Notes: generated from the letters alone by a model not told the origin. A DNA stretch of 64,000 nt from an uncultured virus (IMG/VR IMGVR_UViG_3300032323_003710) (IMGVR_UViG_3300032323_003710), one strand, 5' to 3'; numbered from the stretch's first letter, positions 24,255 to 61,542 are shown. Translations and numbers: made by a program.

Positions 24255-24255
24255 T

Positions 24256-24732
24256 ATGATTTACTTATTAGAAGAAAGAAATAGACTAAGTGAATATGCT
24301 TATAAAGAACCTGATGAAAGAATAGTAGAATTATATAATGCAATGACTGGTTATGGATCAACTTGTACACTTCTTTATAAGTTCAAGTTATCAAGTAAGT
24401 TAGATTATATGAATAAGTTTGGTATTAATGTACCTGAAAAAGTTGACTATAATAAATTAACACAAGATTATTTTATTCTTTACCACTTAACTACTTGGGT
24501 ATTTAACATTGATGCTTTTAAAGGATTAGTAGAGTTTTGTAATAGAAATAATAAAGACTTGATTATACCTTATGCAAATCATGGTAGAGATTTTTATACA
24601 TCTTCAAAGAAAGAAGGTATGATACAAAAATATAATATTTTCTTAGAAGTATTAAAGAGTTATGAAACAGAAAAAATTACTGACATTAAGCTAATGTCAA
24701 GAGATATTAAATTAAAGGGTCTATTGAGTTAA
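24256..24732 (+). CDS. Hypothetical protein with RD tag
   Basis: Ends MSRDIKLKGLLS. Confidence 0.75.
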   Translation: MIYLLEERNRLSEYAYKEPDERIVELYNAMTGYGSTCTLLYKFKLSSKLDYMNKFGINVPEKVDYNKLTQDYFILYHLTTWVFNIDAFKGLVEFCNRNNKDLIIPYANHGRDFYTSSKKEGMIQKYNIFLEVLKSYETEKITDIKLMSRDIKLKGLLS

Positions 24733-24983
24733 TACTTAATAGACTCTATGTTTTTTAGAGAAACTTCATATTCATTACCATCATATTCTATAGTAACTAA
24801 ACCATCATCATCTATACTTACTGGTTTAAGTGGTTTTTCAGGATCATTATCAGCAAACTCTTTTATGATTGTGGCATAAACAACACCACCTGCTTGAATA
24901 CATTTTATTACATCATCCGCAGTAATTAAAGAACCATCCGGATTATTATTTTTAAAATCTTCATATATTTTTAAGTATCTCAT
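24729..24983 (-). CDS. Small protein with N-terminal MRYLKIYE tag
   Basis: MRYLKIYEDF. Confidence 0.75.
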   Translation of the reverse strand: MRYLKIYEDFKNNNPDGSLITADDVIKCIQAGGVVYATIIKEFADNDPEKPLKPVSIDDDGLVTIEYDGNEYEVSLKNIESIKY

Positions 24984-25873: not shown

Positions 25874-25926
25874 AAATCTATATATAAAAAATAATATATA
25901 GATTTATGAAATACTTAAAGAAATTT
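25853..25926. repeat. Perfect 33-bp inverted repeat, 8-bp spacer, spanning two divergent start codons
   Basis: 25853-25885 is the exact reverse complement of 25894-25926. Confidence 0.92.
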
Positions 25927-26697
25927 AATGAAGAGTTGAAGTCAAGTACTTATAAAAGTGCTGCAGATAAACTAAATTATAGACATACTGCCAGATCTAA
26001 AGCTCTTTCTGACTTTAGTGATGTAAGACTTAAAGAAGAACAAGAAGAAGAAAAAAGGATTGCATTAGAGAATGAAAGAATTAAAAAAGAGAAAGAATAT
26101 AAAGAATGGCAAGATGAAATTAAAAGATATTCACCATTTGGATTATTCACATTTAGAATAAGTCCTGATGGCGGACCAGCATTTGAAGAAGACTTCTACT
26201 TAATGGTCACACACTGGTATGATGAAGGTCACTATGGTGAAATTGAACAAAATAATCAAACTTGGTTAAACTTTGATTTTCATTTAGTTCCTAAAGATAT
26301 TGAGACATATAATAAAGTTCGTAGTTGTGCTGATTGGGATTGGCAAGATGGATATAGATTTCATATCTGGAGAGGTTGGGTTAATATAAAAACTAAAGAA
26401 TATGATTGTGAAGTTGAAGGTTTCTCAACTGATACTGCAGATAATTTTTATGGTCAAATTGATATAGCTGATAGGAAAACTGCATTAAAATTCAAAAGAT
26501 TATTGTATAGTATATTTACTAGTAAAGATTATCCAGATTATGTTGCAACTTATCATGAAACATATCCATCATTATATAATGCAGTTGAGGCTACATTGGC
26601 ACAATCAGGTATATCATCTGATTTTGGTTTAGAAATGAGTCATATAGCAGATGTTGTAAATAAAATAAGTGTAAACTCTTTATATCAAACTAACTAA
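25906..26697 (+). CDS. Paralog-family protein B (MKYLKKFNEE tag)
   Basis: DRKTALKFK, KISVNSLY. Confidence 0.8.
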   Translation: MKYLKKFNEELKSSTYKSAADKLNYRHTARSKALSDFSDVRLKEEQEEEKRIALENERIKKEKEYKEWQDEIKRYSPFGLFTFRISPDGGPAFEEDFYLMVTHWYDEGHYGEIEQNNQTWLNFDFHLVPKDIETYNKVRSCADWDWQDGYRFHIWRGWVNIKTKEYDCEVEGFSTDTADNFYGQIDIADRKTALKFKRLLYSIFTSKDYPDYVATYHETYPSLYNAVEATLAQSGISSDFGLEMSHIADVVNKISVNSLYQTN

Positions 26698-26702
26698 GAA
26701 CT

Positions 26703-27545
26703 ATGAAATATATTAAAAAATTTAATGAAGAGCTTACTGCTAATACTTATATGAAGGCATCTAAAGCACTTAAAGATTTAAAACATAATAAAAGAGCTGA
26801 TAAGTTAGAGAAACATGCTAAAATAATTTCTCAGTTAAATAAATTAAATGATTTAGTAAAAGACCTTAAAAAATATGAACCTTATGGTATATTTGATGCT
26901 GGTTCAGAACAAGGTTCTAAATTAAAAGAACAATTTGCTCTAAAAATGTGGTATGATGATTGGGCCTTTAAAGAATCATTTGAAGATTATGAGAATGAAT
27001 ATAATTCTTTTTTTTGGGTAAGAGTTTCAGTAGGACTTTTACCAATACTTGAAGAAGGTGAAGAAGAACATATAAGAGATTATTACTCAGAAATGAGTGG
27101 TAATGTTTATGATGGTATTTCTTATGTTGATAAATTAGGTGAAATGGAAGAAGATAATGCAATAGGTAGAGTTTGTCAATACTTTGGTAATAATGAATTT
27201 TGGGGTGTTTTTTCAGGTCCTTCTATCTATGTTAGAATGGCTATTGAGGATAATAAAATAGTTATAAAAGGTATAGATGTTGATGAAGATTCAGAAGATG
27301 TACTTAGTATATTAGGTAGAAAGTCTGGTATACAATTCAAAAACTTATTAGTTAAATTATTCTCTAGTGAGAAGTTTGACTTCCCTACAGAAGATGGTAG
27401 AAATCTACAACAAGTTATTAAATATGAACTTTGTGAGAACACAGGGTTTAGTTCAAAATATCAATTTGTATTTGGTGAAATAGGAGAATTTATTAAAAAG
27501 GAAAGTATAAACAAATTTTATCATTCTTTTAACTTTGTAAACTAA
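26703..27545 (+). CDS. Paralog-family protein C (MKYIKKFNEE tag)
   Basis: GRKSGIQFK, KESINKFY. Confidence 0.8.
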   Translation: MKYIKKFNEELTANTYMKASKALKDLKHNKRADKLEKHAKIISQLNKLNDLVKDLKKYEPYGIFDAGSEQGSKLKEQFALKMWYDDWAFKESFEDYENEYNSFFWVRVSVGLLPILEEGEEEHIRDYYSEMSGNVYDGISYVDKLGEMEEDNAIGRVCQYFGNNEFWGVFSGPSIYVRMAIEDNKIVIKGIDVDEDSEDVLSILGRKSGIQFKNLLVKLFSSEKFDFPTEDGRNLQQVIKYELCENTGFSSKYQFVFGEIGEFIKKESINKFYHSFNFVN

Positions 27546-27560
27546 AAAACAACTATCTTT

Positions 27561-28778
27561 GTGAAAATAATTACTAAATACACTAAATTCTTGGAAACAA
27601 TAAACAATAAAGATATTAAGAAAATCTCTGCTAATATAACTCTACCTAATGATATTATAGAAGTATCTAATGCCTACATAAAAGCAGGTAAAGATATTTT
27701 CTTGGTAGGTGGTGCAGTAAGAGATTTTATACAAGGTAAAGAACCTAAAGATTGGGATTTAGTTACCAATGCTTTACCAGAAGAATCAAAACAAATACTT
27801 AAAGGCTTTAAATTATCTGATGAACAAGGTAAAAACTTTGGTGTGTTAAGACTTTACACTAAAGATGAACCAGAAGGATATGAAATTGCATCATACAGAA
27901 AAGATATTTCCAAAGGTAGAGATACTAAAGGTGATGATCAAAAAGTTGAAATGGGTAAACACATAACTATCTTTGATGATTGTATGAGAAGAGATTTAAC
28001 AATGAATGCTCTTTTCTATGATATTAAAAACAAACAGATTGTAGATATTGTTGGTGGTGTTGATGATATTAAAAATGGTGTTGTTAGAGCTGTTGGTAAT
28101 GCAATGGAAAGATTTATTGAAGATAGATTAAGAATTTGTAGAATCTTTAGATTTGCAGCAAGAACTGGTGGTAAAATTGATGGTAACACAGCTAAAGCAA
28201 TTAGAACTGATAACAGATTGAAAGGTATTAGTCCTACTGATGATGTGTCACAAGAAAGAATATTTGAAGAATTTAAGAAAGCATGGAAACAAGCAATTGA
28301 CTTTAATGACTACTTAAACTTCTTTACTGAGTTTGATATGTGGGGACAAGTTTTTCCAGGTTCTAAAATAAATACTGACTTAATAGAGTCAAAAGACTTT
28401 GTTGTTGTTATGTCAAACTTATTCAAAAATGAGTCAACTAAAGGTTTAGAAGATAGATTAGTACAAGAGTACAAGATACCTAACTCACCAGAGTCTGGTA
28501 AAATAGCAACTCAAATGGTATTCTTAATCAACTTATTAGGATTAACTATTGATGATGTACCTGAAATGTACAAAAAGAAAGTTCAATGTTCTATTAAAGA
28601 TATAACCATCTTAGAATGGTTAGATGTAAACTCTATAAATGACCCTGTAAAGATTAAATTTGTTGAGTTCAAACCAAGTGTCTCTTCTAAAGAGTTAATG
28701 GATCGTGGTATCACTGGTAGAGAATTGGGACTTAAAATTAAAGAATTAGAAATAGAAAATTTTAAAAAATTATTATGA
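27561..28778 (+). CDS. cca: CCA-adding enzyme / tRNA nucleotidyltransferase (poly(A) polymerase family)
   Basis: LVGGAVRD, DWD, RRDLTMNA, EDRLRICRIFRF, SQERIFEE; GTG start. Confidence 0.9.
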   Translation: MKIITKYTKFLETINNKDIKKISANITLPNDIIEVSNAYIKAGKDIFLVGGAVRDFIQGKEPKDWDLVTNALPEESKQILKGFKLSDEQGKNFGVLRLYTKDEPEGYEIASYRKDISKGRDTKGDDQKVEMGKHITIFDDCMRRDLTMNALFYDIKNKQIVDIVGGVDDIKNGVVRAVGNAMERFIEDRLRICRIFRFAARTGGKIDGNTAKAIRTDNRLKGISPTDDVSQERIFEEFKKAWKQAIDFNDYLNFFTEFDMWGQVFPGSKINTDLIESKDFVVVMSNLFKNESTKGLEDRLVQEYKIPNSPESGKIATQMVFLINLLGLTIDDVPEMYKKKVQCSIKDITILEWLDVNSINDPVKIKFVEFKPSVSSKELMDRGITGRELGLKIKELEIENFKKLL

Positions 28779-29239
28779 CATACTATATAACATATTTAAA
28801 AGATACAATTGGAAATAACTATTTAGGTATTAAAATACCTAATGATGTTGTTAATCCATTCTTGGATGACTTAAAAGAAATCCTTGGTGATGATTTTGAT
28901 ACCTATACTGAAAATCAAAAGAGAAGAGACCATGATGCTTACCACATCACGGTAATGAATGTAATGGACTATAATAGACTTGCTAAAGAAGTAGGTGTGG
29001 AAAATTTTATTAACTCATTAGAAACAGTTTTAAATTATGAAATAGATGATTTAGAAATGTTGGGTGTTGGTACTGCAGAAAAAGGAGGTAATAGAACTTA
29101 CTTTGTTGTTTGTAATTCTGATAAGTTAGATGCTGTTAGAACAAGATTTGGATTGGGTAAACAAGACTTTCATACTACTTTAGGATTTAAAGATAAGGAT
29201 GTTTTTGGTGTACCTAAAAATAAAATAATTGAAAAATAA
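28775..29239 (+). CDS. 2H phosphoesterase (Swiss-Army-knife type)
   Basis: Two HxT motifs (HITV, HTTL), followed by GF...DVFGVPK. Confidence 0.85.
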   Translation: MTYYITYLKDTIGNNYLGIKIPNDVVNPFLDDLKEILGDDFDTYTENQKRRDHDAYHITVMNVMDYNRLAKEVGVENFINSLETVLNYEIDDLEMLGVGTAEKGGNRTYFVVCNSDKLDAVRTRFGLGKQDFHTTLGFKDKDVFGVPKNKIIEK

Positions 29240-29607: not shown

Positions 29608-30621
29608 TTATAATACTGATTTTACTGTTTTAATAATTCTTGCTGCAATTTTGTATGGATCACCATTTGATGCAGGTCTTCTATCTTCTAAATATCCTTT
29701 CCATCCATTTTGTACTGTATAAAGAGGAATTCTAATTGATGCACCTCTATCAGATATACCATAAGAAAAGTCATTTATAGATGCAGTTTCATGTTTTCCA
29801 GTTAGACGTTGGTCATTGTGAGCACCATATACTGCAATGTGTTCATTTACAACAGGTCTAAAAGCTTCACAAATTTTATCATAAACTTCTTTATCACCAC
29901 AAGTTCTTAAAACTTCATTAGAGAAGTTAGCATGCATTCCAGACCCATTCCAATCTGTATCACCTAAAGGTTTAGGATGATATTCAATATAGTAACCATA
30001 TTTTTCAGTTAAACGATCTAATAGATAACGAGCAACCCATATTTCATCACCTGCTTTCTTTGCACCTTTTGCAAATAATTGAAATTCCCATTGACCACAT
30101 GCAACTTCTTGATTTATACCTTCAAAGTTAAGTCCAGCTGCAATACATAAATCTGCATGTTCTTCTACTAATCTTCTTCCATGAGTGTTTTTTCCACCAA
30201 CTGAACAGTAATACATTCCTTGTGGTGCAGGATAACCGCCTATTGGAAATCCTAATGGTAGTAAAGTTTTTGTATCCATTATGAAATATTCTTGTTCAAA
30301 ACCAAACCAGAAATCTCCATCATCATCAATAGTAGATCTACCATTTGATGGATGTGGAGTTCCATCTGCATACATAACTTCTGTCATAACTAAATAACCA
30401 TTCAAACGAGTAGGGTCAGGGTAAATTGCAACAGGAACTAATAAACAATCTGATGAACCACCTTCTGCTTGTTTTGTTGATGAACCATCAAAAGACCAAT
30501 TTCCTATTTCTTCTAATGTTCCTTTAAAGTCTTGATGTTCTTCTACCTTAGTTTTACTTCTAAGATTTTGAGTTGGTTCATATCCATCTAACCAAATATA
30601 TTCTAATTTTATTTTTGTCAT
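29608..30621 (-). CDS. glnII: Glutamine synthetase type II
   Basis: EYIWLDG, LRSKT, WSFDGSST, FGFEQEY, GINQEV..GQWEFQ, DWNGSGMHANFS, RLTGKHET, RGASIRIP, YLEDRRPASN. Confidence 0.95.
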   Translation of the reverse strand: MTKIKLEYIWLDGYEPTQNLRSKTKVEEHQDFKGTLEEIGNWSFDGSSTKQAEGGSSDCLLVPVAIYPDPTRLNGYLVMTEVMYADGTPHPSNGRSTIDDDGDFWFGFEQEYFIMDTKTLLPLGFPIGGYPAPQGMYYCSVGGKNTHGRRLVEEHADLCIAAGLNFEGINQEVACGQWEFQLFAKGAKKAGDEIWVARYLLDRLTEKYGYYIEYHPKPLGDTDWNGSGMHANFSNEVLRTCGDKEVYDKICEAFRPVVNEHIAVYGAHNDQRLTGKHETASINDFSYGISDRGASIRIPLYTVQNGWKGYLEDRRPASNGDPYKIAARIIKTVKSVL

Positions 30622-30669: not shown

Positions 30670-30788
30670 TGGTGGAACTAAAAAAAGAAGTATCTTTGTC
30701 AAACAAATGAGAAACATATTAACTCTCACAAACAAATAAAAAATAATTAAAATAAAGTTTGTAGAATTAAAAAAGTTCCTTATCTTTG
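30668..30788 (+). promoter_or_regulatory. Two tandem Bacteroidota-type promoters
   Basis: TTTG-N19-TATCTTTG at 30668-30698 and at 30758-30788. Confidence 0.75.
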
Positions 30789-31549: not shown

Positions 31550-31580
31550 TTTGGTAGATTAAAAATAAGTAGTAACTTTG
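31550..31580 (+). promoter_or_regulatory. Bacteroidota-type promoter TTTG-N19-TAACTTTG
   Basis: Upstream of AAA ATPase. Confidence 0.7.
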
Positions 31581-39159: not shown

Positions 39160-39191
39160 TTTGTTTCTAAAATAAAAATTACCTATCTTTG
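39160..39191 (+). promoter_or_regulatory. Bacteroidota-type promoter TTTG-N20-TATCTTTG
   Basis: Upstream of ORF 39210. Confidence 0.65.
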
Positions 39192-40085: not shown

Positions 40086-40126
40086 AAAATAATAACTATA
40101 TTTGTAAAAAATAAAAACACATACTT

Positions 40127-43868: not shown

Positions 43869-44879
43869 TTATGCTTCTTCTTCACCACCTAATAATTTAT
43901 CAACTTCTGGTAATTTATCTGTTTTTGTTTTAATAAAATCAACAAACTTGGCAACTCTTTTCATTTGTTCAGGATCTTTTTTAAGTTCTCCTAAATCAGT
44001 TTGTAGTTTTTTCTCATCTTCTCCTTCCGCAGCAACTTCTGTTTTACCTACTATCTCTGCAGTAGTCTTAACAATTTGTTTACCATCATTACCTGTAAAT
44101 GTAAATTTATCACCTTCAATTTTATCAACTTTTTTAACATTAACTATTTTCTTTGCTACTTCATCTGTAGTAGGTGCTTTCTTTTGCTCATCTGTTAAAG
44201 CATCCCAAGCAGTTTTTTGTTGACCCTTTCTTAAATAGATAAGTTCTTCACCTACTTTATAATCAGTTGCAGTAGATGCTGCAATTTGATTAGCTTTTCT
44301 ATACTCTTCTTCTGCTTTTTTGAATATTTCATTATTCATAATAGTTTTCTTAAAGTCATCAACAATTGTTTTAATTTCTGATATTGCAACAGCTTTTTTT
44401 GCTGCTAAGTCTGCAGCAGCAGCAAACTTTTTATCAAAGTCAGCTTTTATCTCACCTGCTTTCTTTTTCATCATTCCAAATGCAACACTTGCACCAATTA
44501 AAGCATCTTGAATCTTTCCTTCATTAATTGAATTTGACTCTTTAACTATTTTAACTTCTTTATCAAACTCTGCAATTTGGTCATCAATTTGTTTAACAAA
44601 ATCCAATCTCATATTAGTAAGTGCTTCTTCATCCTCTGCCTTATTAATTCCATCAGTTGCTCCTTTAAGTAAAGCATCCATCTTAGCAATCATTGTTTGT
44701 TTAACTTTTTCTCTATCCATACCTTTCTTAAAATCATCTTTCAATGTTTTGAATGGTGCTGCAATATTACCTAAGAAACTTTTTAATGCTCCTTTTGCAG
44801 CATTATAAAGTGCTCCTAAAAATTCTTCATTTACTGAATCTTCTTGTTTGAAAGATTCATATTTTTTTACATATCTCAT
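43869..44879 (-). CDS. Helical protein with N-terminal MRYVKKYE tag
   Basis: MRYVKKYESF...VNEE; AATATATA 44904-44911. Confidence 0.8.
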   Translation of the reverse strand: MRYVKKYESFKQEDSVNEEFLGALYNAAKGALKSFLGNIAAPFKTLKDDFKKGMDREKVKQTMIAKMDALLKGATDGINKAEDEEALTNMRLDFVKQIDDQIAEFDKEVKIVKESNSINEGKIQDALIGASVAFGMMKKKAGEIKADFDKKFAAAADLAAKKAVAISEIKTIVDDFKKTIMNNEIFKKAEEEYRKANQIAASTATDYKVGEELIYLRKGQQKTAWDALTDEQKKAPTTDEVAKKIVNVKKVDKIEGDKFTFTGNDGKQIVKTTAEIVGKTEVAAEGEDEKKLQTDLGELKKDPEQMKRVAKFVDFIKTKTDKLPEVDKLLGGEEEA

Positions 44880-44942
44880 TACTGATAATTATTTTTTATA
44901 AACTATATATTAAAATTAAAATATAAAAAAGAAAAAATATAT

Positions 44943-45437
44943 ATGAATAACAATTACATAGAAATGGTTGCAGAATTCCACAAAACATTCCAAGCACCAA
45001 TATTACCAACACCACAAATACCATCTGCAGATAGATGTAAACTAAGAGTTTCCTTACTACAAGAAGAATTAAATGAATTACAAGAAGCTATTGATAACAA
45101 TGACTTAGTAGAGATTGCTGATGCACTTGCAGATTTACAATATGTTTTAAGTGGTGCTATATTAGAATTTGGTTTAGGAGAAAAGTTCAATGAACTATTC
45201 AATGAAGTACAAAGAAGTAATATGTCTAAGGCATGTGAAAATGAAGTTATTGCTCAAGAAACTATAGAACACTACAAACAAAAAGATGGTACTGAATCTG
45301 ATTACAAAGAAGTAAATGGTAAATACATTGTTTACAGAAATGAAGACAATAAAGTTTTGAAATCTGTAAATTATAGCCCTGCTAATCTACCAGGTATAAT
45401 TAAAGGTGTTGATACTTTTAATATGTATTTAGACTAA
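44943..45437 (+). CDS. MazG-like / PRA-PH nucleoside triphosphate pyrophosphohydrolase
   Basis: V.EFH..F, LLQEELNEL, EIADALADLQYV, EVQRSNMSK, KVLKS; class B motif 44900-44927. Confidence 0.9.
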   Translation: MNNNYIEMVAEFHKTFQAPILPTPQIPSADRCKLRVSLLQEELNELQEAIDNNDLVEIADALADLQYVLSGAILEFGLGEKFNELFNEVQRSNMSKACENEVIAQETIEHYKQKDGTESDYKEVNGKYIVYRNEDNKVLKSVNYSPANLPGIIKGVDTFNMYLD

Positions 45438-45760
45438 TGAATGATTATATTAAAGATAAACTCAGACTTAAATTAAATCTTCATGCTTCTTCTGGTAAAA
45501 AGAGAGAAGGTGTTATTGATGAGAAAGTTATTGAATCTCTTACTAAACAAGTTGATGGATTGGGAAAATATGAAATTACATATAAAGGTATTTTTCCAAC
45601 TGGGATTCATAAGTTAGATGATAACTATCAAGTTGAATATAAGAATGGTAAGTACTATCTCTCACTACATGGTGTAACTACTGACTTAAAAGCAAATGAG
45701 TTTATTGATTTTAATATAAAAGAATTTAGAAATATACAATTAAAAAAACTACTTTCTTAA
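45437..45760 (+). CDS. Hypothetical protein with RD tag
   Basis: Ends EFRNIQLKKLLS. Confidence 0.75.
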   Translation: MNDYIKDKLRLKLNLHASSGKKREGVIDEKVIESLTKQVDGLGKYEITYKGIFPTGIHKLDDNYQVEYKNGKYYLSLHGVTTDLKANEFIDFNIKEFRNIQLKKLLS

Positions 45761-45782
45761 AATAATTTGCTATATTTGTAGC

Positions 45783-46049
45783 ATGAAGACAAAAGATTTA
45801 GACAAGTTAACACAAGGAGATATAGTAGTTTTTATAAAACATATTAATGGTTGGGCTTTTAATAAGTATAAAATTGGAGACCAATATAAGTTTCATAGTT
45901 TTAACATTAATAAAAATATGCCTATGTCTTCAAATACTGTTTACTTAGAAAGTTTACAAGGTGAAGTAATAGCATTTACACCAAAGGTTGCATATAATAT
46001 AGAAACTCTACAGAAGTGGAGACAATTACAATTAGAAAAATTAGTATAA
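45783..46049 (+). CDS. Small SH3/KOW-like protein with RD tag
   Basis: QGDIVVF; ends KWRQLQLEKLV; TATATTTG 45771-45778. Confidence 0.7.
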   Translation: MKTKDLDKLTQGDIVVFIKHINGWAFNKYKIGDQYKFHSFNINKNMPMSSNTVYLESLQGEVIAFTPKVAYNIETLQKWRQLQLEKLV

Positions 46050-46393
46050 TGACTGATAAAGAAAAGAAGTTAAGACAACATAAAAAAGAACTAAAGAGTC
46101 TTAGAAATAAAATGGGTAAACATATTGTTTGGTTTGATGCACTTGCTTCAAATAGACAATATGATTTACTATTTCTATGGAAAAAAGAAAAATATAAAGT
46201 AAAGGATATTAAAGTACCAACCAAAGTAAAGTTTGAATATGGTAATAGATTCACATTACAAAAGACTTATACTAAATATCCTGCAAGTATTAAACATTTT
46301 TTAGAAGTTTATACTTTAGATAGTAGATTCCAACCAAGTAAAGCAAGAATAAGAGAAGCATCACTAAAAATATTATTAAATGAATTATCCTGA
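46049..46393 (+). CDS. Basic hypothetical protein with RD tag
   Basis: Start MTDKEKK (TAATG coupling); ends RIREASLKILLNELS. Confidence 0.7.
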   Translation: MTDKEKKLRQHKKELKSLRNKMGKHIVWFDALASNRQYDLLFLWKKEKYKVKDIKVPTKVKFEYGNRFTLQKTYTKYPASIKHFLEVYTLDSRFQPSKARIREASLKILLNELS

Positions 46394-46928
46394 ACATATT
46401 AGAGACATTAAACTTAATCTATTGATGTCTGAGAATACTATAACTATAGACCCAAGTAAAAGAAAAGGTAAACTTACATTTCTTAGACCTGGATATGGTT
46501 TAATAAAACAATTAATTAAAATGGGTGCTATTGTCACTGGTTCAAGAGCACTTAGATGTTATAACATAAATGGTAAACAACTATTTGATAGAAAACCAAG
46601 GGATTGGGATTTTCTTGTAACTGAAAAAATGGCAATGAAAATTTGTGATGAACATGGTGTTACTTACAAAGATGGTAGTATAATGGTTTTGAAACAAATG
46701 ATTCTATTCAGAGATAGTTGTTATGGAGATTCAAGATATTTTACAACAGATATTCAACTTATTGTTAAAGATGAACTACCTGAGTATAGAGAAGTTGATG
46801 GTGTCAGATTTTCTGAACTATCACATATCATAGATGAAAAATATAAACTTGTCAGTACTTATTGTAATTCTATGAATAAACATGATGAAGATTTAAGACA
46901 AATAATAGCAAGATTTAACAACTTATGA
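46380..46928 (+). CDS. Nucleotidyltransferase-like protein with N-terminal RD tag
   Basis: VTGSRAL...RKPRDWDF (GS..DxD); starts HIRDIKLNLLM. Confidence 0.7.
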   Translation: MNYPEHIRDIKLNLLMSENTITIDPSKRKGKLTFLRPGYGLIKQLIKMGAIVTGSRALRCYNINGKQLFDRKPRDWDFLVTEKMAMKICDEHGVTYKDGSIMVLKQMILFRDSCYGDSRYFTTDIQLIVKDELPEYREVDGVRFSELSHIIDEKYKLVSTYCNSMNKHDEDLRQIIARFNNL

Positions 46929-47482
46929 TAGACTATGCAAGATTAGATAGATCCTTAAACTTCTATGAAGAAGCAGGATTCAAAAGAATAGAAGCACCCT
47001 GGACAGTTACCAAAGCTATATCCTCAATAACTAAACCACAAGGTAAAACAGATTGGGAAATTATAGGTAAAGATAAAGTACTAGTGGCTTCAGGTGAACA
47101 AAGTTTCCTCTACTTATACCTAAAAGGATTTCTTCCTAAAGGTCGCTACCAAACTATAACACCATGTTTTAGAGAAGAGCCTTTTGACCAAACACATAGT
47201 AAATACTTTATTAAGAATGAGTTAATCATAACTGATGAAGTAAATACTAAAACATTAGTTGATGTTATAAATGTTTGTAAAAAATTCTATGAGAGTGAAT
47301 TAGAAACATCTGTTGATTTGGTTAAGACTGAGTTTGGATTTGACTTAGAAGTAAATGGAATTGAGATAGGTTCTTATGGAATAAGAAGTTGTGAATATCT
47401 GGATTGGATATATGCAACAGGATTAGCAGAGCCAAGATTTTCAATAATAAAAAATATAGTAAAGAAAAATGGGTTATCATAA
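46925..47482 (+). CDS. Minimal class II aminoacyl-tRNA-synthetase-like catalytic domain
   Basis: Motif 1 GF..IEAP, ASGEQSF, motif 2 PCFREE...H..YF.K.EL, EIGSYG, motif 3 GLAEPR; no anticodon domain. Confidence 0.8.
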   Translation: MIDYARLDRSLNFYEEAGFKRIEAPWTVTKAISSITKPQGKTDWEIIGKDKVLVASGEQSFLYLYLKGFLPKGRYQTITPCFREEPFDQTHSKYFIKNELIITDEVNTKTLVDVINVCKKFYESELETSVDLVKTEFGFDLEVNGIEIGSYGIRSCEYLDWIYATGLAEPRFSIIKNIVKKNGLS

Positions 47483-47720
47483 AACTGAAATACCAAGAGG
47501 TAAATATGGTGAGTTCTCTAAAATTAGAGAAGAGTTTTTAGAAGCACAAGATGCTTTAGAACAAGATAATAAAATAATGTTGATGGTTGAACTATCAGAC
47601 TTGATTGGTTCAATTGAAGCTTATTGTAAACAACATCACAATATTACTTTAGATGATTTGATTACAATGAAAGAAGCAACTAAAAGAGCGTTCACTGATG
47701 GTACAAGAGAACCAAGGTAA
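47469..47720 (+). CDS. Small MazG-like protein
   Basis: SKIREEFLEAQDA...VELSDLIG. Confidence 0.7.
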   Translation: MGYHKTEIPRGKYGEFSKIREEFLEAQDALEQDNKIMLMVELSDLIGSIEAYCKQHHNITLDDLITMKEATKRAFTDGTREPR

Positions 47721-47940
47721 AACTTACTATGAAGTAGGTGATAGAGTTCTTAGAGGTAATCATAATTGTATTATAATAGTAATACATAGACCTAATAATA
47801 GATATTATATTAGATACTTAGATAATTTTAATACTCAAGGAACTAATGTTGAAAGTTGGGTTGCTTACTCAGATATTGAGTTAGATAGAGAATATTATAG
47901 AGATTTAAAAATAGAACAGATATTAAATGGAGATAGGTGA
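47698..47940 (+). CDS. Small SH3/KOW-like protein with RD tag
   Basis: YEVGDRV; YYRDLKIEQILN. Confidence 0.75.
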   Translation: MVQENQGKTYYEVGDRVLRGNHNCIIIVIHRPNNRYYIRYLDNFNTQGTNVESWVAYSDIELDREYYRDLKIEQILNGDR

Positions 47941-48160
47941 TATAGTAATACTTAAAGAGGATAGTTTTCTAAAAGAATATTTTCCTGGTTATTGTGAAAT
48001 AATTGAGACTATAACTATTATGAGAGAACTTAGGTATAGTATTAGGACTATTGACTTTATTAATGGCTCACAAAATATAACCTTGTCATATGAAAATGAT
48101 ATTATACCAATAGTCAGAATTAGAAATGAGAAATTAAATAAATTATTAGATGAAATATAA
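47927..48160 (+). CDS. Small SH3/KOW-like protein with RD tag
   Basis: MEIGDIVILK; RIRNEKLNKLLD. Confidence 0.75.
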   Translation: MEIGDIVILKEDSFLKEYFPGYCEIIETITIMRELRYSIRTIDFINGSQNITLSYENDIIPIVRIRNEKLNKLLDEI

Positions 48161-48482
48161 AATTAGATTTGAGATTAAGTATGGTGATTTAAGTAAAGAT
48201 GAAATCAGAGACCATAAATTAGGATTATTGGATCAAGATATAACTACAGAAATTGAATCTGAATATCCCTTGAATATACCTTCTAAAGATGAAATGGTTG
48301 AGTTAGGTGAAGAATTATACTCAATCAATATGATTTATCATAAATTAGAAAAAGATTGCTATACAAGTGTTATTTCAGTTACTAGTAATAAGATTAAAAA
48401 TATGTTAGATGCTAAGCAAAGAAAGCTTGACACAGAAAGAGAAATAGAAAGAATGAGTTCTATGTTTTCATTTAAAGTATAA
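48150..48482 (+). CDS. Hypothetical protein with N-proximal RD motif
   Basis: EIRDHKLGLL. Confidence 0.7.
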   Translation: MKYKIRFEIKYGDLSKDEIRDHKLGLLDQDITTEIESEYPLNIPSKDEMVELGEELYSINMIYHKLEKDCYTSVISVTSNKIKNMLDAKQRKLDTEREIERMSSMFSFKV

Positions 48483-48799
48483 TGACTATAGAAAAACTAA
48501 ATGAACTTATAGATAAAAGTAAGATGTTTGGTAGAGATTTTAGAATTAAAACTTTTGAAACTTTCCCAAATGTACATCCAACATTAAAAAATCCACTCAA
48601 TCATCTTAATGATATTAGAGTAGAATTTTCTATGTATGATGTCAATATATTTGGGGTTCATATGTTAAGTGAAATGACTATAAAAGACTTCTTTGATGAA
48701 GTTGATAAGATTGCAAATGAAAGAAATGAAACATATAAAAATTGGAAACAAACAGAATTAAGAGAATATAACATAGATAAAATATTAGAAAATGAGTAA
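48482..48799 (+). CDS. Hypothetical protein with RD tag
   Basis: Ends ELREYNIDKILENE. Confidence 0.75.
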   Translation: MTIEKLNELIDKSKMFGRDFRIKTFETFPNVHPTLKNPLNHLNDIRVEFSMYDVNIFGVHMLSEMTIKDFFDEVDKIANERNETYKNWKQTELREYNIDKILENE

Positions 48800-49778
48800 A
48801 TATATAAATGATTTCATTAAAGACTTATCAATTAAAGATAAGAAAACACTTTCACAAAAAACACTTAAATTAGTAGAAGAAGTAGGTGAACTCTCAAGAT
48901 TTATTCTACCATTTGATTCAGCACCAGGAACAAACCATAGATTTTCAGATAGAGAAAAAATACTTGAAGAAGTAGTAGATGTTTATTTATCAAACATTTC
49001 TATTGCACATTCATTAGGTTTCACTGATGAAGAGTTTAATGAAATGTTAAACAAGAAAACTGATAAGTGGGCTAAGCTTCAATTAAAAGAAGATGAAGTA
49101 ACTTTCCCTTTACCTTATGAGATACATGTTACTGTTGATACCTCAGAAAACTTCTTTGAATGTGATATAGATGGGTTTAAATCTAAATGTCAAGAAATTG
49201 ATGTTAAACCAATTGTTTTAGATTTAGAAATGAAAGAAGGAACTTTGAAGGATGTAATGACAAGTTCAAAGCACTTTGGAGACAATAGAACTGCATATGA
49301 AGAAGCAAATCGTATTGCTAATAAACTTACATCATTTGGTTACAAAGTTGTCAGAAACAAGATAGAAACAGTTCCTTGGCATCCTGCAGCACCTACTTTT
49401 AAAACAGGAGAACCAATTCCAAATGGATGTTACTTTGAAAGTCATATTGGTGTTGTTATTTCACCAGATGAAAAAGAAGCTCTACAAGAGTTTGTACAAG
49501 GATTAAATGATAGATGTACAGAAGCTGGTAGAATTGAGATAGGTGGTACTTGTAAATTATCACAGAACTTCTTTAAGAAATCTAAAGATGGTAGTAAGTT
49601 TGTTAATATGCTTACTTATAGAGATAATATGACTTGTAGAGAAGACTTTGAACATGGAGTTGAAGCAATTAAATGGTCATTAGATAAATGTGGATTTGAC
49701 TTTGAGAAAGTTGAAGTTGAATATGCACTTTATGATACCAATGTAAATCATGATTCAAAATGGATTCTTGGACTATAA
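48792..49778 (+). CDS. MazG-like domain fused to uncharacterised His/Glu-motif domain
   Basis: KLVEEVGEL...EEVVDV; then YEIHVTV, RNKIET, YFESHIG, EYALYDTN..HD..W. Confidence 0.75.
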   Translation: MSKYINDFIKDLSIKDKKTLSQKTLKLVEEVGELSRFILPFDSAPGTNHRFSDREKILEEVVDVYLSNISIAHSLGFTDEEFNEMLNKKTDKWAKLQLKEDEVTFPLPYEIHVTVDTSENFFECDIDGFKSKCQEIDVKPIVLDLEMKEGTLKDVMTSSKHFGDNRTAYEEANRIANKLTSFGYKVVRNKIETVPWHPAAPTFKTGEPIPNGCYFESHIGVVISPDEKEALQEFVQGLNDRCTEAGRIEIGGTCKLSQNFFKKSKDGSKFVNMLTYRDNMTCREDFEHGVEAIKWSLDKCGFDFEKVEVEYALYDTNVNHDSKWILGL

Positions 49779-50038
49779 AAAGTAATATAAAGGATGGTAA
49801 GGTTAAATTTAAAGTAGGTGATAAAGTAATTTGTTTTAGAAGAAAAACTAATGGTCATCCAAGAAAAATAAAGGATGATGTTGAATATACTATAAAGTCA
49901 ATAGTTAATGATGATTTGTTTATTGCAACACATTCATTAGATGGTATTGGATGGAATCAAGTTATAAAGGTTCATAAAACTTATATGATAAGTAAAGCAG
50001 ATTTAAGAGAAATTAAAATAAATGAGATATTAAGATGA
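49760..50038 (+). CDS. Small SH3/KOW-like protein with RD tag
   Basis: FKVGDKVIC; ends DLREIKINEILR. Confidence 0.75.
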   Translation: MDSWTIKSNIKDGKVKFKVGDKVICFRRKTNGHPRKIKDDVEYTIKSIVNDDLFIATHSLDGIGWNQVIKVHKTYMISKADLREIKINEILR

Positions 50039-50472
50039 TATACTATGATTCACATAAGAATAAATTTATACCTATAGATAAAAAAGATATAGAGATTAAG
50101 TTTATTACAAATAATAACATTACAACAAGACAACTAAGTAAAGAGTGTGAAATAGTTATAAGGTTTGATTATTCTGAATTAAAGTATTTCAAACAATGGT
50201 TTGATGATACACATGATAGTCAAAGGATGAGGTATGTTTCTGAATATAAAAGAGACATCTTTATATCAGATCCCGATTCTGTTATAGATACAAAGTTTTG
50301 TAATTGTTTTATATCAAGTATGGAATTATATGATTTTAGATCACCTTACAATAGTGTGGTTAATCAGTTTGAAGTTTTATTGAAATGTGATTATTATGAA
50401 AAAGGTGGTGTTTATCCAGAGTTAAAGGCAATATATAGAGATAAGAAGATAGACTTAATACTATCAAAATAA
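50035..50472 (+). CDS. Tail-tube (gp19)-like derivative with RD tag
   Basis: YFKQW...SEYKRDIFI...FEVLLKCDYYE then YRDKKIDLILSK. Confidence 0.65.
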   Translation: MIYYDSHKNKFIPIDKKDIEIKFITNNNITTRQLSKECEIVIRFDYSELKYFKQWFDDTHDSQRMRYVSEYKRDIFISDPDSVIDTKFCNCFISSMELYDFRSPYNSVVNQFEVLLKCDYYEKGGVYPELKAIYRDKKIDLILSK

Positions 50473-50500
50473 AAAGAGAAGTCAATGACTTCTCTTTTTT
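50470..50500. terminator. Bidirectional intrinsic terminator
   Basis: AAAAAGAGAAGTCA-a-TGACTTCTCTTTTTT. Confidence 0.8.
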
Positions 50501-50550
50501 ATGGTTACCAGTAGTAACAGACTTATAGTACTGAGACTATAAGGTGGTTT

Positions 50551-51021
50551 TTAATATATCATTTTACTTGGGAACTCACTTTCTTTTCTAGTATGTGGGT
50601 ATGATTCTTTATCAAAACACTTTTTAATTTCACACGCTTTTTTCCAAGCAACAAACTTAGGATCATGTTCTGCAGGATTTTCAAAACTATGTTGAAAGTT
50701 TTTTTGATAGTCAAGTAATTCTTCTTTTGATTTATTCATAAAGTAATCAAAGGTTCCTTCTGTTTCTTCTCTACTTTCTAATAGTTTATTTAACATTTTA
50801 CCATCTGCTGCATAAAAGTCTGTAAGTTTGAATCCTAATTCTTTACAATATTTAGTAATAAGTTTATCTTGAAACTTTTCTTTTTGACCTGCTAATAAAT
50901 CTTTATAATCTTTATTATCTTTTAAATCAGCTTTAACTTTCTTGGCAACTGCTCTTCTGTTTGCATCTGTCATTTCTTTCTTAGCTTCTTTAGCTTCATT
51001 AAATCTTTTTAAATATTTCAT
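50551..51021 (-). CDS. Hypothetical protein with MKYLKRFNE tag
   Basis: Start moved to MKYLKRFNEA; AATATATA 51044-51051. Confidence 0.8.
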   Translation of the reverse strand: MKYLKRFNEAKEAKKEMTDANRRAVAKKVKADLKDNKDYKDLLAGQKEKFQDKLITKYCKELGFKLTDFYAADGKMLNKLLESREETEGTFDYFMNKSKEELLDYQKNFQHSFENPAEHDPKFVAWKKACEIKKCFDKESYPHTRKESEFPSKMIY

Positions 51022-51106
51022 AATATACAATTTTTTATTAAACTATATATTAATTAATCAAACTTATTTTTCTTTTTTTCTATAAATAAGAAAATAATTT
51101 AATTAA

Positions 51107-52282
51107 ATGGGTAAACTCGCGTTAAATTTTATATGTAAAGATGAATCACATGTAATAGAAAGAATGCTTACTTCTGTTAAATCAATTGTTGATTTAATAG
51201 TTGTTAATGATACCGGATCAACTGATGGTACACAAGACTTGATAAGAAAGTTTGGAAAAGAAAACAATATACCTACTTATGTTTTTGATAGACCTTTTGA
51301 TGACTTTGAAAAAAGTAGAAATCATGCTATGGAAAAACTAAGAGAAGTAGTAAAGGAATTAGGCTGGGATGCTAACAAAGTACACGGTTTCTGGATTGAC
51401 TGTGATGAACAAATGGTTGTTGAACCAGGTTTCAATAAAAATCAATTCACTAATGACCTTTATATGATTAATACTTTCATTGGTCAAATGAAATACACAA
51501 GAAATACTTTCTTCAAAGTTTCTAAACCCTTTAGATGGTATGGCCCTGTGCATGAGTTCATTGTGTGTGATGACCAGAACATTTCATCAGGATTAGCAGA
51601 AGGATGTTTTGTTAATGTTAGTATGGATGGTAATTCTTGGCAGTCAAGTATTCCTGCTAAATACCTATCACATTCTCACAAATTAGAATCTTATATTGCA
51701 GAGAATAGACAGGATCCAAGATGGATTTTCTATACTGCACAATCTTATCATGATTCAGCATCAATGCCTGATAATCAAGAAGAGAATAAAGAAAGACTTA
51801 GACGTTCTTTAAGATATTATAAAGAAAGAACTGAAAGAACTGATGGTTATGCAGAGGAAATTTACTATGCTCATTACAGAATGGGTTCAATTATGAAAAC
51901 ATTAGAAGAACCTTGGAACTTAACAATGCAACAATGTTTAAAAGCTTATGCAATTGATCCTTTGAGAGGTGAATCAATTAAACTAATAATTGATTACTAC
52001 TTACAAATGGGAGAATGGCACTTAGCTTATTTATACACTAAGTTTGGTTATGAGAACTTTCACAATAAAAATCCTTATCCAACAAGATTATTATTTGTTG
52101 AAGAAGCTCTTTACACTTGGAAATTTGCAGAGGCACATGCTGCATCTTGTTTCTATACAGGTAGAAAAGATGAAGCTAAGAAAGTTTATGAACAAATGGT
52201 AGCATTAACTAAAACAAATCCTGGTGCATTCTCACAAGATGATTTGAATAAGATTAATACTAATGCACAATTCTTCAAATAA
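51107..52282 (+). CDS. GT2 glycosyltransferase with C-terminal TPR-like repeats
   Basis: ICKDES..IER.L.S, DTGSTDGT, FDDF..SRN, IDCDE, WYGPVHE; class B motif 51060-51087. Confidence 0.88.
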   Translation: MGKLALNFICKDESHVIERMLTSVKSIVDLIVVNDTGSTDGTQDLIRKFGKENNIPTYVFDRPFDDFEKSRNHAMEKLREVVKELGWDANKVHGFWIDCDEQMVVEPGFNKNQFTNDLYMINTFIGQMKYTRNTFFKVSKPFRWYGPVHEFIVCDDQNISSGLAEGCFVNVSMDGNSWQSSIPAKYLSHSHKLESYIAENRQDPRWIFYTAQSYHDSASMPDNQEENKERLRRSLRYYKERTERTDGYAEEIYYAHYRMGSIMKTLEEPWNLTMQQCLKAYAIDPLRGESIKLIIDYYLQMGEWHLAYLYTKFGYENFHNKNPYPTRLLFVEEALYTWKFAEAHAASCFYTGRKDEAKKVYEQMVALTKTNPGAFSQDDLNKINTNAQFFK

Positions 52283-58759: not shown

Positions 58760-58901
58760 TTTAATTTTTTAATTTTCTTTTATATATTAAAAAAATTATC
58801 TTGCTAATACAAAATAAATACAAAACTACGTCGTTATAGTAGAGAATGTCAGACTTTTTATTATTTAGTTTTAATATATATAATAAAAAAAATTGTATTG
58901 G

Positions 58902-59630
58902 ATGAATGATACATTATTAGATGAGTTAATAAATCTTATTGATAAACATGGCATTAAAGGATTTGTAGGTGTTTTACTTGTATATTCACTAATTTCTATA
59001 TTTAAAAGTCAATGGTTTGGTAACCTTTTCTCAAAATTATCAGATAAATTTGTTGAAAGATTTATGAAAAGTGAGACAAAAGATGTTAGTATCAGAAAAA
59101 TTAATGATTCTGATATAACTAATCATGATATATTTAACTATATTGACTTTTGGACTTATTCTAAAGTTCCAACTTTTCAATTCTCAACAGAGTTTAGAAC
59201 TGCAGTATTTAGAAAGTATTTAACTATCTATCTTAAAAACTACAAAAGAAACATTGAGAAATTTGTAGTAGATAAAAGTTATGAGACAATGGATGAACCA
59301 CAAATACTTAAAACATTTCTTAACCTTATAAACCAAACTGTTTATGACTATGAGAGAGAAATGAGTGATGTAGGTATCACTCCTATTATTATAGAGAAGA
59401 TGAAAGTTAAGAACAATGATAACATATCTTTAACAATAGATTTAGTTGAAGGTGTTTGTTCATCACAGTTTTATAACTCTGAGAATAATTTATTAAAAAT
59501 ATATTCAATACTTAATATATTACTTACAGTATTAGAAAGTACTGTAAATAATGCTGAAAGTGTTTGTAATACTATCAATGGTCAATTAAAAGGATTGACT
59601 TTTGAAGGAAAAATAGAACCTGGTAAATAA
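58902..59630 (+). CDS. Membrane-anchored hypothetical protein, first gene of two-component operon
   Basis: N-terminal TM (GFVGVLLVYSLISIF); AATATATA 58873-58880; ATG at 58902 or TTG at 58893. Confidence 0.75.
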   Translation: MNDTLLDELINLIDKHGIKGFVGVLLVYSLISIFKSQWFGNLFSKLSDKFVERFMKSETKDVSIRKINDSDITNHDIFNYIDFWTYSKVPTFQFSTEFRTAVFRKYLTIYLKNYKRNIEKFVVDKSYETMDEPQILKTFLNLINQTVYDYEREMSDVGITPIIIEKMKVKNNDNISLTIDLVEGVCSSQFYNSENNLLKIYSILNILLTVLESTVNNAESVCNTINGQLKGLTFEGKIEPGK

Positions 59631-61108
59631 TGGATATTATTAAAGAATTAGAAAAGTATGTAAACGAATTAAAAAGAAAAGAGGATGAAATATCCAATAG
59701 AATGTATGCTATTAATCAGTCAAATGCAGTCATAGAGTTTGAACTAAATGGTACTATAAAATATGCAAATAAATTATTTTTAGAAACTATGGGTTATTCA
59801 TCAGAAGATGAAGTTGTAGGAAAACATCATAGTATTTTTATGGAAGATGATGTAAAAGATACTCAAGCATATTTTGATTTTTGGGAAAGATTAAATCAAG
59901 GTAAATTCTTTAGTGGAGAAATCAAAAGAAAGAAGAAAGATGGAACTCTAATTTATTTACAAGCAACATATAATCCAATTATTGGTACTGATGGTAAAGC
60001 TTATAGTGTAATAAAAATTGCTACTGATATTACTAAAATTTTTAATCAACAAATAGAGATTGAAAATAAAGAAAATGAAATTCGTAATAGAATGAATGCT
60101 ATTAACCAGTCAAATGCTGTTATAGAGTTTGAACTTAATGGTACTATAAAATATGCAAATGATTTATTTGTATCTACTATGGGTTATTCTTCACAGGATG
60201 AAATTGTAGGAAAACATCATAGTATTTTTATGGAAGATGATGTAAAAGATACTCAGGCATATTTTGATTTTTGGGAAAGATTAAATGAAGGTACATTCTT
60301 TAGTGGAGAGATTACAAGAAAGAAAAAAGATGGAACTTTAATCTATTTACAAGCAACATATAATCCAATTATTTCGACTGATGGTAGAATATATAGTGTA
60401 ATGAAAATTGCAACTGATATTACTAAAAGTTTTAATCAACAAATAGAGATTGAAAAGAAAAATACTTATCTAGAACATGCTGCCAAAATACTTAGACATG
60501 ATATGCATAGTGGAATTAATACCTATATGCCACGTGGTTTAAGTTCACTTGATCGTAGGATTACTGATGAACAACTGAAAGAGTTAAAAATTGATGCACC
60601 TCTTAAAATGATAAGAGAAGGTTTAAGACATACTCAAAAAGTTTACAAAGGAGTTTATGAATTTACAAATCTTGTAAAGAAAGATGTTGTTTTAAATCGT
60701 TCAGATCTTAACCTAAAAGATATTCTTGAGGATTATCTTTCAGCAACTGCATACAAACCTCAAGTTATTATAGAAGACTTAGGTATTGTATCAGTAAATG
60801 AAGCTCTTTTCTGTACTGCAATAGACAATTTAATTCGTAATGGACTTAAATACAATGATAGTGCATCAAAGTTTGTCAAAATTTATAAAAAAGATTATAA
60901 TATATACATAGAAGATAATGGTAGAGGTATGTCCGCAGAGGAATTTAAACTTCTATCTCAACCTTACACTAGAAAAGAAGATCAAAAAGAATCTGGTACT
61001 GGATTAGGCCTTAACATATGTGTTGCTATACTTGAAGAACATAAATTTAATATATCTTGTAGAAAGTTATCTCAAGGTACACAAATAAAAATAAAAATAA
61101 ATAACTAA
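59630..61108 (+). CDS. Soluble PAS-PAS sensor histidine kinase
   Basis: Two PAS/PAC domains; H-box LRHDMHS, N-box DNLIRNGLKYN, G1 EDNGRGM, G2 GTGLGL. Confidence 0.92.
   Translation: MDIIKELEKYVNELKRKEDEISNRMYAINQSNAVIEFELNGTIKYANKLFLETMGYSSEDEVVGKHHSIFMEDDVKDTQAYFDFWERLNQGKFFSGEIKRKKKDGTLIYLQATYNPIIGTDGKAYSVIKIATDITKIFNQQIEIENKENEIRNRMNAINQSNAVIEFELNGTIKYANDLFVSTMGYSSQDEIVGKHHSIFMEDDVKDTQAYFDFWERLNEGTFFSGEITRKKKDGTLIYLQATYNPIISTDGRIYSVMKIATDITKSFNQQIEIEKKNTYLEHAAKILRHDMHSGINTYMPRGLSSLDRRITDEQLKELKIDAPLKMIREGLRHTQKVYKGVYEFTNLVKKDVVLNRSDLNLKDILEDYLSATAYKPQVIIEDLGIVSVNEALFCTAIDNLIRNGLKYNDSASKFVKIYKKDYNIYIEDNGRGMSAEEFKLLSQPYTRKEDQKESGTGLGLNICVAILEEHKFNISCRKLSQGTQIKIKINN
59696..60456 (+). repeat. 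Recent tandem duplication of PAS domain (period 390 bp)
   Basis: 59696-60066 vs 60086-60456 nearly identical at DNA level. Confidence 0.9.
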
Positions 61109-61110
61109 AA

Positions 61111-61542
61111 ATGATTGATTCTATTTTATTAGTGGACGATGAAAGCCTTTTCCACTTAGTATTTGAAGACGCTTGTAGTCTTTTAGATATATCTCTTTCT
61201 TTAGAATGTTTAGATAGCTCAGATGAAGCAGCTAGAACATTTGAAGATTTATATCAAACAGGGAAAGCTAGACCAGAGTGTGTCTTTGTAGACCTAAATA
61301 TAATTGGTTCCTCTTTTGATGGAATTGAACTAATTCGTAAAATAACTGAGGACATGGGTAATGGAATGGTTATTGGAATCATCTCATCATCAGATGAACC
61401 AGAAGAACAAGCAAAAGCTAAAAAAGCTGGTGCACAATTTTGGATAATAAAGTCTGATGAGATTGAACCACGTCTTGAAGATTTTGTAAAAGATTTTGAT
61501 GGTTATAAAAATCATACAGCACCATTTAAAGTATATAAATAG
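61111..61542 (+). CDS. Single-domain response regulator (REC)
   Basis: ILLVDDE, VFVDLN (phospho-Asp), DGIELI, ISSS, IIKS. Confidence 0.92.
   Translation: MIDSILLVDDESLFHLVFEDACSLLDISLSLECLDSSDEAARTFEDLYQTGKARPECVFVDLNIIGSSFDGIELIRKITEDMGNGMVIGIISSSDEPEEQAKAKKAGAQFWIIKSDEIEPRLEDFVKDFDGYKNHTAPFKVYK

Follow-up and report, generated by a model that had tools for sequence, protein, structure and literature searches.

The tail-tube fold is familiar from the components of phage tails, eCIS and T6SS, and the C-terminus of a tube subunit lies on the outer face of the tube. The tube terminator gp3 and the initiators gp48 and gp54 of phage T4 are a precedent for paralogues of this fold that do not polymerise themselves. 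Previous studies have stated, in the parts cited here, that tail-tube proteins trigger the host DSR2 defence and that DSAD1 blocks it (PMC10981675, PMC11087589, PMC11263360), so that the premise of a tube trigger, already used in a first-pass annotation of the DNA described below, agrees with these sources. In the present study, we analyzed a stretch of 64,000 nucleotides from an uncultured virus (the window) and describe a gene at 50035..50472 on the + strand (the 50035 gene), which is probably an accessory, tag-bearing, non-late and non-virion paralogue of the tail-tube fold.

The G+C content of the window was 28%, and its closest named relatives were two phage records of 634,780 and 642,428 bp. 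The assembly names of related metagenome contigs pointed to activated sludge and similar waters. We infer that the source of the window is a Mahaphage-like megaphage. Lak phages recode a stop codon; an alternative genetic code was not needed here, since translation table 11 gave 94-95% coding both in the window and in LR745206, a complete 635-kb relative with a T4-like portal (195 bits), an MCP (89 bits) and a sheath-like gene. The part of the megaphage survey cited here assigns genomes larger than 634 kb to the Mahaphage clade, with Bacteroidetes as their predicted hosts (Al-Shayeb et al. 2020, PMC7162821).

The ORF list gave the 50035 gene an ATG start and a TAA stop, with a product of 145 aa. 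Residues 1-126 (50035..50412) were modelled as a tube/Hcp-type beta-barrel core whose first strand (MIYYD) is at the very start of the protein. The core is followed by a linker (YPELKA) and a C-terminal tag helix at residues 127-145 (50413..50469), delimited from helix 128-144 of the model and from the family alignment, and the pattern scan placed the strict tag motif R-D-K-K-I-D-L-I-L at residues 135-143 (50437..50463), ending 2 residues ahead of the stop. The strings quoted in the first-pass annotation were all present in this ORF, including KYFKQW (50-55), SEYKRDIFI (69-77) and FEVLLKCDYYE (112-122); the last of these is followed by KGGVYPELKAI and then by YRDKKIDLILSK.

A profile search of 1.84 billion representatives returned 56 proteins at E<=0.001, including 23 at E<=1e-10. 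These homologues, which are representatives at the 50% identity level, were nearly all 118-163 aa long and matched the profile from end to end. Homologues of the 50035 protein fell into 56 clusters among 66 candidates and were 36-100% identical to it. Two alignments were built: A1 contained 27 sequences out of the 56 clusters, picked to span the identity range, and A2 contained the 50035 protein with 50 of the 56 representatives, leaving out four fragments (P0055, P0075, P0083 and P0087), one partial match (P0076) and one protein of 230 aa (P0106). The A1 sequences shared an invariant MIYYD start, and their most conserved block was YPELKAIYRDxKIDLIL, which was invariant or nearly so. In A2, identity to the 50035 protein went down to 20-45% with the tag still kept, and R135 was the sole residue invariant over the 51 sequences. 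The whole-gene dN/dS among close relatives was 0.15-0.20, and the last 19 codons showed a dN of 0 at a dS of 0.20 in comparisons with L003 and L005. The reading frame was intact in all six translated copies. At the related locus L010, the copy of the 50035 gene was 42% identical at the protein level, the lowest value among 12 matched genes (window 44943-52282), the remaining 11 being 50-85% identical. These results indicated that, in a tagged tube family that diverges rapidly, conservation is highest in the tag. A tblastn search of the 50035 protein against 50,697 phage records gave no match, none of 90 pattern matches from an IMG/VR scan for the family was confirmed, and literature searches, mainly of listings and abstracts, returned no paper describing a tagged tube-fold family or the tag.

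The structure of the 50035 protein was modelled with AF2 from A1, and the model had a pLDDT of 78.6 and a pTM of 0.71. Helix 128-144 was separate from the rest and of low confidence (pLDDT 52-73). The model had the beta-barrel, flanking helix and long beta-hairpin of the tail tube/Hcp superfamily; the N-terminal segment that precedes the first core strand in phage and eCIS tube chains was missing. A Foldseek search of the PDB gave a best E of 3e-5 and 15 matches at E<=0.001, and every listed match was a tube, Hcp, tube-initiator or tube-terminator entry: the eCIS tubes Pvc1 and Afp1, the phage tubes of Pam3, E217, Sf14, 812 and T4, Hcp proteins, and terminators or initiators. In BFVD, 68 matches were found at E<=0.001; most of the named rows were tail tubes, tube initiators or terminators, and the best matches included KVP40 Gp19 and entries named 'tail tube protein'. 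VIA-align agreed in 49 of its 50 listed rows, which were tube or Hcp entries, the exception being a hypothetical protein of S. aureus; it matched the model from residue 1 to residues 122-128 with tube chains starting at residue 9-21 and with Hcp starting at residue 4-5. An atlas search gave a lead, a cluster with PF06841 in 16% of its members (score 0.88). Neither Pfam nor PHROGs matched the 50035 protein, and with no PF06841 match at E<=1 (curated cut-off 28.2 bits) it does not belong to that family as defined by Pfam. The fold scores were tied among Hcp, eCIS tubes and phage tubes, so that the barrel may come from any of these groups, and the model was of moderate quality (pLDDT 78.6, TM 0.5-0.6).

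The likeness to T4 gp19 was then considered at the sequence level. We translated T4 gene 19 (AF158101) and found QKFVDW, AEYKKSAIV and FEVTLALDYWE colinear with the three strings of the 50035 protein, FEVTLALDYWE being the extreme C-terminus of gp19 (residues 153-163). BLASTP aligned residues 106-122 of the 50035 protein with residues 147-163 of gp19 at an E of 0.003 for the single pair, the local score was reached by 11 of 2000 shuffles (z 3.7), and hhalign gave a probability of 7%. By itself, this sequence likeness is marginal. The thin sequence match agrees with the structural register, which points to a remote homology to gp19 that is seen mainly through the fold. In the model, residue 1 of the 50035 protein aligned to residue 21 of gp19, and the predicted barrel is complete, ends at the end point of gp19 and is devoid of an N-terminal arm, as in Hcp. 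The gp19 motifs named in the first-pass annotation occur in T4 gene 19 in the same order; its assignment of a tail-tube fold is likewise supported by the tube-family Foldseek matches (best E 3e-5). It had also described a tag added beyond the natural C-terminus and a missing gp19 N-terminal part, in keeping with a barrel that stops where gp19 stops, with the tag after it, and with an alignment in which about 20 residues of gp19 are lacking.

The tag was scanned in the window as the pattern R-[DENQ]-x-[KRQN]-[ILMV]-x-x-[ILMV]-[ILMV], and a match was counted as C-terminal within 14 residues of the protein end. The 95 rough ORFs of the window contained 17 matches versus 0.62 expected from shuffled proteins. 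Sixteen of the 17 were C-terminal versus 0.055 expected; no single one of 1000 shuffles gave more than 1, and the reversed window proteins contained none. In LR745206, tagged genes made up 96 of 965 rough genes, or about 10%. The 50035 protein carries the pattern at its C-terminus and keeps it in its homologues. Its helix is the shared C-terminal tag of the Mahaphage-like megaphage, with the consensus R-[DE]-x-K-[IL]-x-x-[IL]-L, and is amphipathic and joined by a flexible linker as modelled. The tag may also be read as PIP-box-like, D-x-K-I-x-x-I-L, which would point to clamp binding. Among 13 tagged or near-tagged window proteins, none reached a curated Pfam cut-off.

Some further tagged proteins of the window were observed. 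The sole tag copy in a non-C-terminal position, IRDIKLNLL, lies at residues 8-16 of a 182-aa protein (46380-46928, +); the gene ahead of it ends in the near-tag IREASLKILLNELS and overlaps the 46380 gene. A misplaced start site or a fusion could account for the position of the tag in the N-terminal part of 46380-46928. Of the small tagged proteins at 45783-46049, 47698-47940, 47927-48160 and 49760-50038, several start with a G-D-x-V stretch, and these gave weak Agenet, Tudor or ProQ-C-like matches (E 0.14-0.17). Judged from such matches, they may consist of SH3-like or Tudor-like domains, paralogous to one another and fused to the tag.

The 50035 gene is the last of a same-strand string of 13 genes (44943..50472, +), annotated with Pfam, PHROG and the tag scan. 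The string contains MazG-like, PRA-PH-like and class-II aaRS-like genes together with small orphans. A 92-aa tagged gene (49760..50038, +) lies immediately upstream, its stop overlapping the start of the 50035 gene (ATGA), and the same gene is directly upstream of the 50035 homologue in six of eight related loci, the loci L006 and L007 being incomplete. A hairpin terminator was found at 50471..50499, between the 50035 gene and the convergent gene 50551-51030 (-), by a terminator scan and RNA folding; it has a 13-bp stem and a folding energy of -14.8 kcal/mol (z -4.06), and none of 200 shuffles was as good. The placement of the gene as last in its operon, made in the first-pass annotation, is thus reinforced by a strong hairpin directly after the stop, and the description of a non-structural operon of small tagged genes holds, as the families around the gene are exclusively non-structural and the strict tag occurs in 7 of the 13 genes. 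The convergent neighbour at 50551-51030 encodes 159 aa with no family match and has a candidate late promoter, motif A, upstream. It is present in L003-L006, whereas L008 and L010 have no copy between the 50035 homologue and a glycosyltransferase, and the corresponding slot of LR745206 has none either; it is thus a second variable gene at the locus.

The rest of the window encodes NusG, a topoisomerase, a 5'-3' exonuclease, a C5 methylase, kinases and glycosyltransferases, as well as an RNA-repair set, a glutamine synthetase and a two-component pair. The RNA-repair set comprises HAD_SAK_2, a PolyA_pol head domain and 2H-SAK, and the two-component pair consists of a PAS histidine kinase and a response regulator; auxiliary genes lie at 23697-29239, 29608-30621 and 59630-61542. 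A 1267-aa protein (19801-23604, -) has a collagen triple-helix repeat (E 9.5e-9), and motif A lies 26 nt ahead of its gene, the sole structural-looking gene of the window, which probably encodes a fibre protein. The 50035 gene lacks the sheath neighbour of a tail-module gene and, judged from motifs, is probably not expressed with the late genes.

To classify the genes by timing, we used promoter motifs. Motif A, TAATATATA, had 19 sites in the window. Although intergenic DNA makes up just 5% of the window, 17 of the sites were intergenic, and 16 of these 17 were 5-28 nt ahead of a start codon. Examples of intergenic sites are 23630-23638 (-), 44904-44912 (-) and 58872-58880 (+). The site at 51044..51052 (-), 14 nt upstream of 50551-51030, is the candidate late promoter of the convergent neighbour. 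In LR745206, motif A was found ahead of the portal and tube genes and of the gene that follows the MCP, with a one-mismatch variant ahead of the MCP itself. Because motif A precedes T4-like structural genes, we read it as a likely late promoter, and some of its transcripts may be nearly leaderless. On the + strand, 44801-50600 contained no motif A; neighbouring units on the opposite strand, both divergent and convergent, had it.

Motif B, TAnnTTTG, which we take to be the Bacteroidota -7 promoter box, is a candidate promoter for the host RNA polymerase. One such box, TATATTTG, lies within the 13-gene string at 45771..45778 (+), 4-5 nt before the 45783 gene and in the same place in L009 and L010. 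Boxes on the + strand were found 5-49 nt ahead of starts at 7309-7316, 9228-9235, 15482-15489, 18186-18193, 30781-30788, 31573-31580, 39184-39191, 40097-40104 and 45771-45778, and the tagged genes 9240, 15509 and 45783 are preceded by the motif. The form of this box is consistent with the cited part of the survey, in which the largest Mahaphages are predicted to infect Bacteroidetes (PMC7162821). A third motif, TATAAATA, precedes five further window genes, and a scan for sigma-70-type promoters was uninformative (54 sites versus 61 expected).

In LR745206, the census of 965 rough genes (96 tagged; 410 in no promoter class) was used for a comparison of tagged and untagged genes. Motif A lay directly upstream of 0/96 tagged versus 134/869 untagged genes (p 4.6e-7), and the result was similar for genes of 45-200 aa (0/88 versus 71/563). 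A-type units held 5/96 tagged versus 257/869 untagged genes (p 2e-8), and B-type units held 38/96 versus 167/869 (p 1.7e-5). The MCP, portal and tube genes were all in A units. By these motifs, the tag in LR745206 is carried by genes outside the late class. Since tagged genes avoid motif A and are enriched behind the host-type box, the results suggested that they are expressed ahead of, or separately from, the late genes. At L010, a + strand motif A lies about 4.3 kb upstream of the 50035 copy, so late read-through into this homologue is possible. Four RNA-library runs contained contigs of relatives with 88-99% identity, and these covered much of the operon. The 50035 gene was covered in run X7 alone (record 22 at 49939-50319, depth to 50488), and runs X1, X5 and X8 had no cover over 50075-50488; these contigs are no proof of transcription and give no timing.

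LR745206 was examined both for the 50035 family and for a separate tube gene. In its syntenic slot, the homologue of the 92-aa gene is followed at once by the glycosyltransferase, and a profile search with A1 found no member of the 50035 family at the sensitivity of that alignment. A 206-aa gene of LR745206, located 2 kb from the sheath-like gene, had a PF06841 match of 19.3 bits, below the cut-off. P0111, 91% identical to its product, matched the PHROG 'tail tube' (phrog_45) at an E of 1e-11, and its PDB match was T4 gp54 at an E of 0.036. The family of the 206-aa protein comprised 1195 clusters, and the best 120 of the 1195 were 82-91% identical. An AF2 model of this family, from alignment A4 (database homologues alone), had a pLDDT of 39.8 and was unusable. 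We conclude that the 206-aa gene is a T4-type tube-family gene, which may be gp54/gp48-like instead of the major tube. With the A2 profile, a divergent member of the 50035 family was detected in LR745206 (L013, 131 aa, E 4e-11), in which a degenerate tag is followed by 11 further residues. The same profile also matched the 206-aa tube gene (E 9e-4), and an hhalign comparison of A2 with A4 was colinear over 66 columns at an E of 4.8e-4 and a probability of 32%; the hhalign comparisons of the tagged family with the phage's own tube gave probabilities of 15-32%, a weak sequence link. From these profile matches, it is plausible that the tagged family branched off long ago from the tube family of the phage itself. 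The separate tube gene of the relative and its empty syntenic slot indicate that the 50035 gene is an accessory paralogue and not the tube itself, and we are fairly confident that it is an accessory, tagged, non-virion tube paralogue.

A tagged protein resembling part of the MCP was also found. L034 (LR745206 207176-207907, +) encodes 243 aa that match MCP residues 344-530 at 27% identity (E 2e-13); its C-terminal end is RDIKIDTLLDGSES, with the tag RDIKIDTLL, and the gene is outside the A-type units. Three untagged small ORFs of LR745206 match N-terminal parts of the MCP. The first-pass annotation had suggested that the phage recycles its own virion proteins, naming two capsid fragments in the window. 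The idea itself gained from the weak colinear link to the tube family and from the tagged MCP fragment of the relative. The two window fragments were not confirmed: the 13 tagged or near-tagged proteins had no Pfam capsid match at E<=1, and tblastn of the LR745206 MCP against the window gave a best E of 0.70. As the relative also has a tagged MCP fragment, such re-use of virion folds appears to be recurrent.

Several other explanations were weighed against this reading. The tube fold might be a mere scaffold, such as an Hcp-like carrier or chaperone ring, in a tagged member of the early proteome whose site is set by the tag alone; its resemblance to a tail tube would then be without functional meaning. 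This would fit a set of tagged proteins that are otherwise unrelated (0/13 at the Pfam cut-off), a barrel that scores equally with Hcp and shares its lack of an N-terminal arm, and a fast divergence of the barrel beside a fixed tag. However, the relative has a tagged MCP fragment too, and colinear gp19-type motifs persist in members that are 20-45% identical, so that we regard the scaffold explanation as rather doubtful. It is distinctly unlikely that the protein is a minor virion or tail-assembly component, a specialised tube paralogue of the gp3/gp48/gp54 kind with the tag as a virion-incorporation signal. Such paralogues are a known precedent in virions, the fold matches include terminators and initiators of tubes, and motif A lies upstream on the same strand in L010; on the other hand, the gene is missing from the LR745206 syntenic slot, its neighbours are non-structural, its family shows much lower conservation than that of the late tube-family gene, and motif A lies upstream of 0/96 tagged versus 134/869 untagged genes.

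The remaining two explanations appeared weaker still. The protein might be an early, dominant-negative 'poison' subunit that would cap or block tube assembly in related co-infecting phages, in host tailocins or in the T6SS of the host, with the tag as a degron that clears it ahead of the assembly of the phage's own tails. A tube fold devoid of the N-terminal arm, an arms race reflected in the divergence of the barrel, and the restriction of the tag to non-late units would all be consistent with this, but the same tag occurs on about 10% of all proteins, and a degron role of the tag and a contact with tube proteins are both unsupported, which makes the explanation very unlikely. That the gene is a decaying, functionless duplicate of a tube gene is hardly conceivable, even though it has been lost from the syntenic slot of one relative and its barrel is highly divergent: the whole gene has a dN/dS of 0.15-0.20 among close relatives, the frame is intact in 6/6 translated copies, clustering at 50% identity leaves 56 representatives of the family, and the N-terminus and tag are invariant or nearly so.

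For the accessory, tag-bearing paralogue, we propose the following role. Synthesis of the protein would precede, or be separate from, that of the late gene products, which we consider likely. It would then form an Hcp-like ring that is unable to stack into a tube and shows its tags on the outside, a step for and against which the arguments are about evenly balanced. The ring is suggested by the analogous Hcp and tube proteins, it may not stack because it has no N-terminal arm and bears a helix on its C-terminus, and the tags would point outward since the C-terminus of a tube subunit is on the outer face. The variable barrel would serve as bait for a partner that recognizes tube- or Hcp-like surfaces, such as a host tube sensor or a competing tube assembly, and the invariant tag would dock the complex on one receptor common to all tagged proteins. 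The combination of a fast-changing barrel with a frozen tag points to a bait mounted on a shared handle, and the DSR2 precedent, in which a host immune protein can recognize a tail-tube protein, is the source of the decoy idea; taken jointly, bait barrel and docking tag are possible, with considerable doubt. The whole chain including this last step, which would make the protein a tagged adaptor or decoy derived from a virion fold, is a tentative reading that falls somewhat short of probable. In an extended form, which we consider unlikely, a Mahaphage-type bait-and-handle system would consist of early, assembly-incompetent copies of the phage's virion folds, such as the tube barrel and capsid fragments, and of many other small binders, all sharing the C-terminal helix; the variable bodies would capture host factors, such as a virion-sensing immune sensor, and the handle would deliver them to one receptor, of phage or host, for sequestration or destruction.

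A conserved tube-fold family encoded away from the tail module, with a portable peptide label and no apparent late promoter ahead of its genes, would represent a novel role for the fold. The 50035 protein is the first carrier of the tag with a recognizable fold and a predictable geometry, probably a ring with the C-termini outside, and thus offers a practical handle for finding the tag receptor. If the decoy or adaptor reading were true, it would show how the largest phages handle host sensors of virion proteins. The classes of promoter motifs also provide a simple temporal sorting of genes in uncultured phages.

The 50035 protein was finally compared with known tube-fold systems. T4 gp19 (PDB 5W5F) belongs to PF06841, whereas the 50035 protein has no match to this family, is devoid of gp19 residues 1-20 and has an added linker and tag helix; in contrast to that of gp19, its gene is accessory and fast-evolving, with no sheath neighbour and no candidate late motif ahead of it. 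The Hcp proteins (B. fragilis Hcp5, 7yw0; F. johnsoniae Hcp1, 6bdc), Pvc1 and Afp1 were the other systems compared, and the 50035 protein differs from them in that it is phage-encoded, comes from a non-structural operon with no secretion-system context, and has the C-terminal tag. Entries of the gp3/gp48/gp54 type (9mkb, 5iv5) are among its fold matches; these T4 proteins are late virion proteins of the tail module, whereas the 50035 gene is outside such a module and has a tag of the non-late class. DSAD1, in the cited parts of the DSR2 papers, is a separate phage inhibitor that is not described as a tube mimic. If the bait-and-handle system were true, it would be the prokaryotic-virus counterpart of the adaptors with which eukaryotic viruses hijack degradation machinery.
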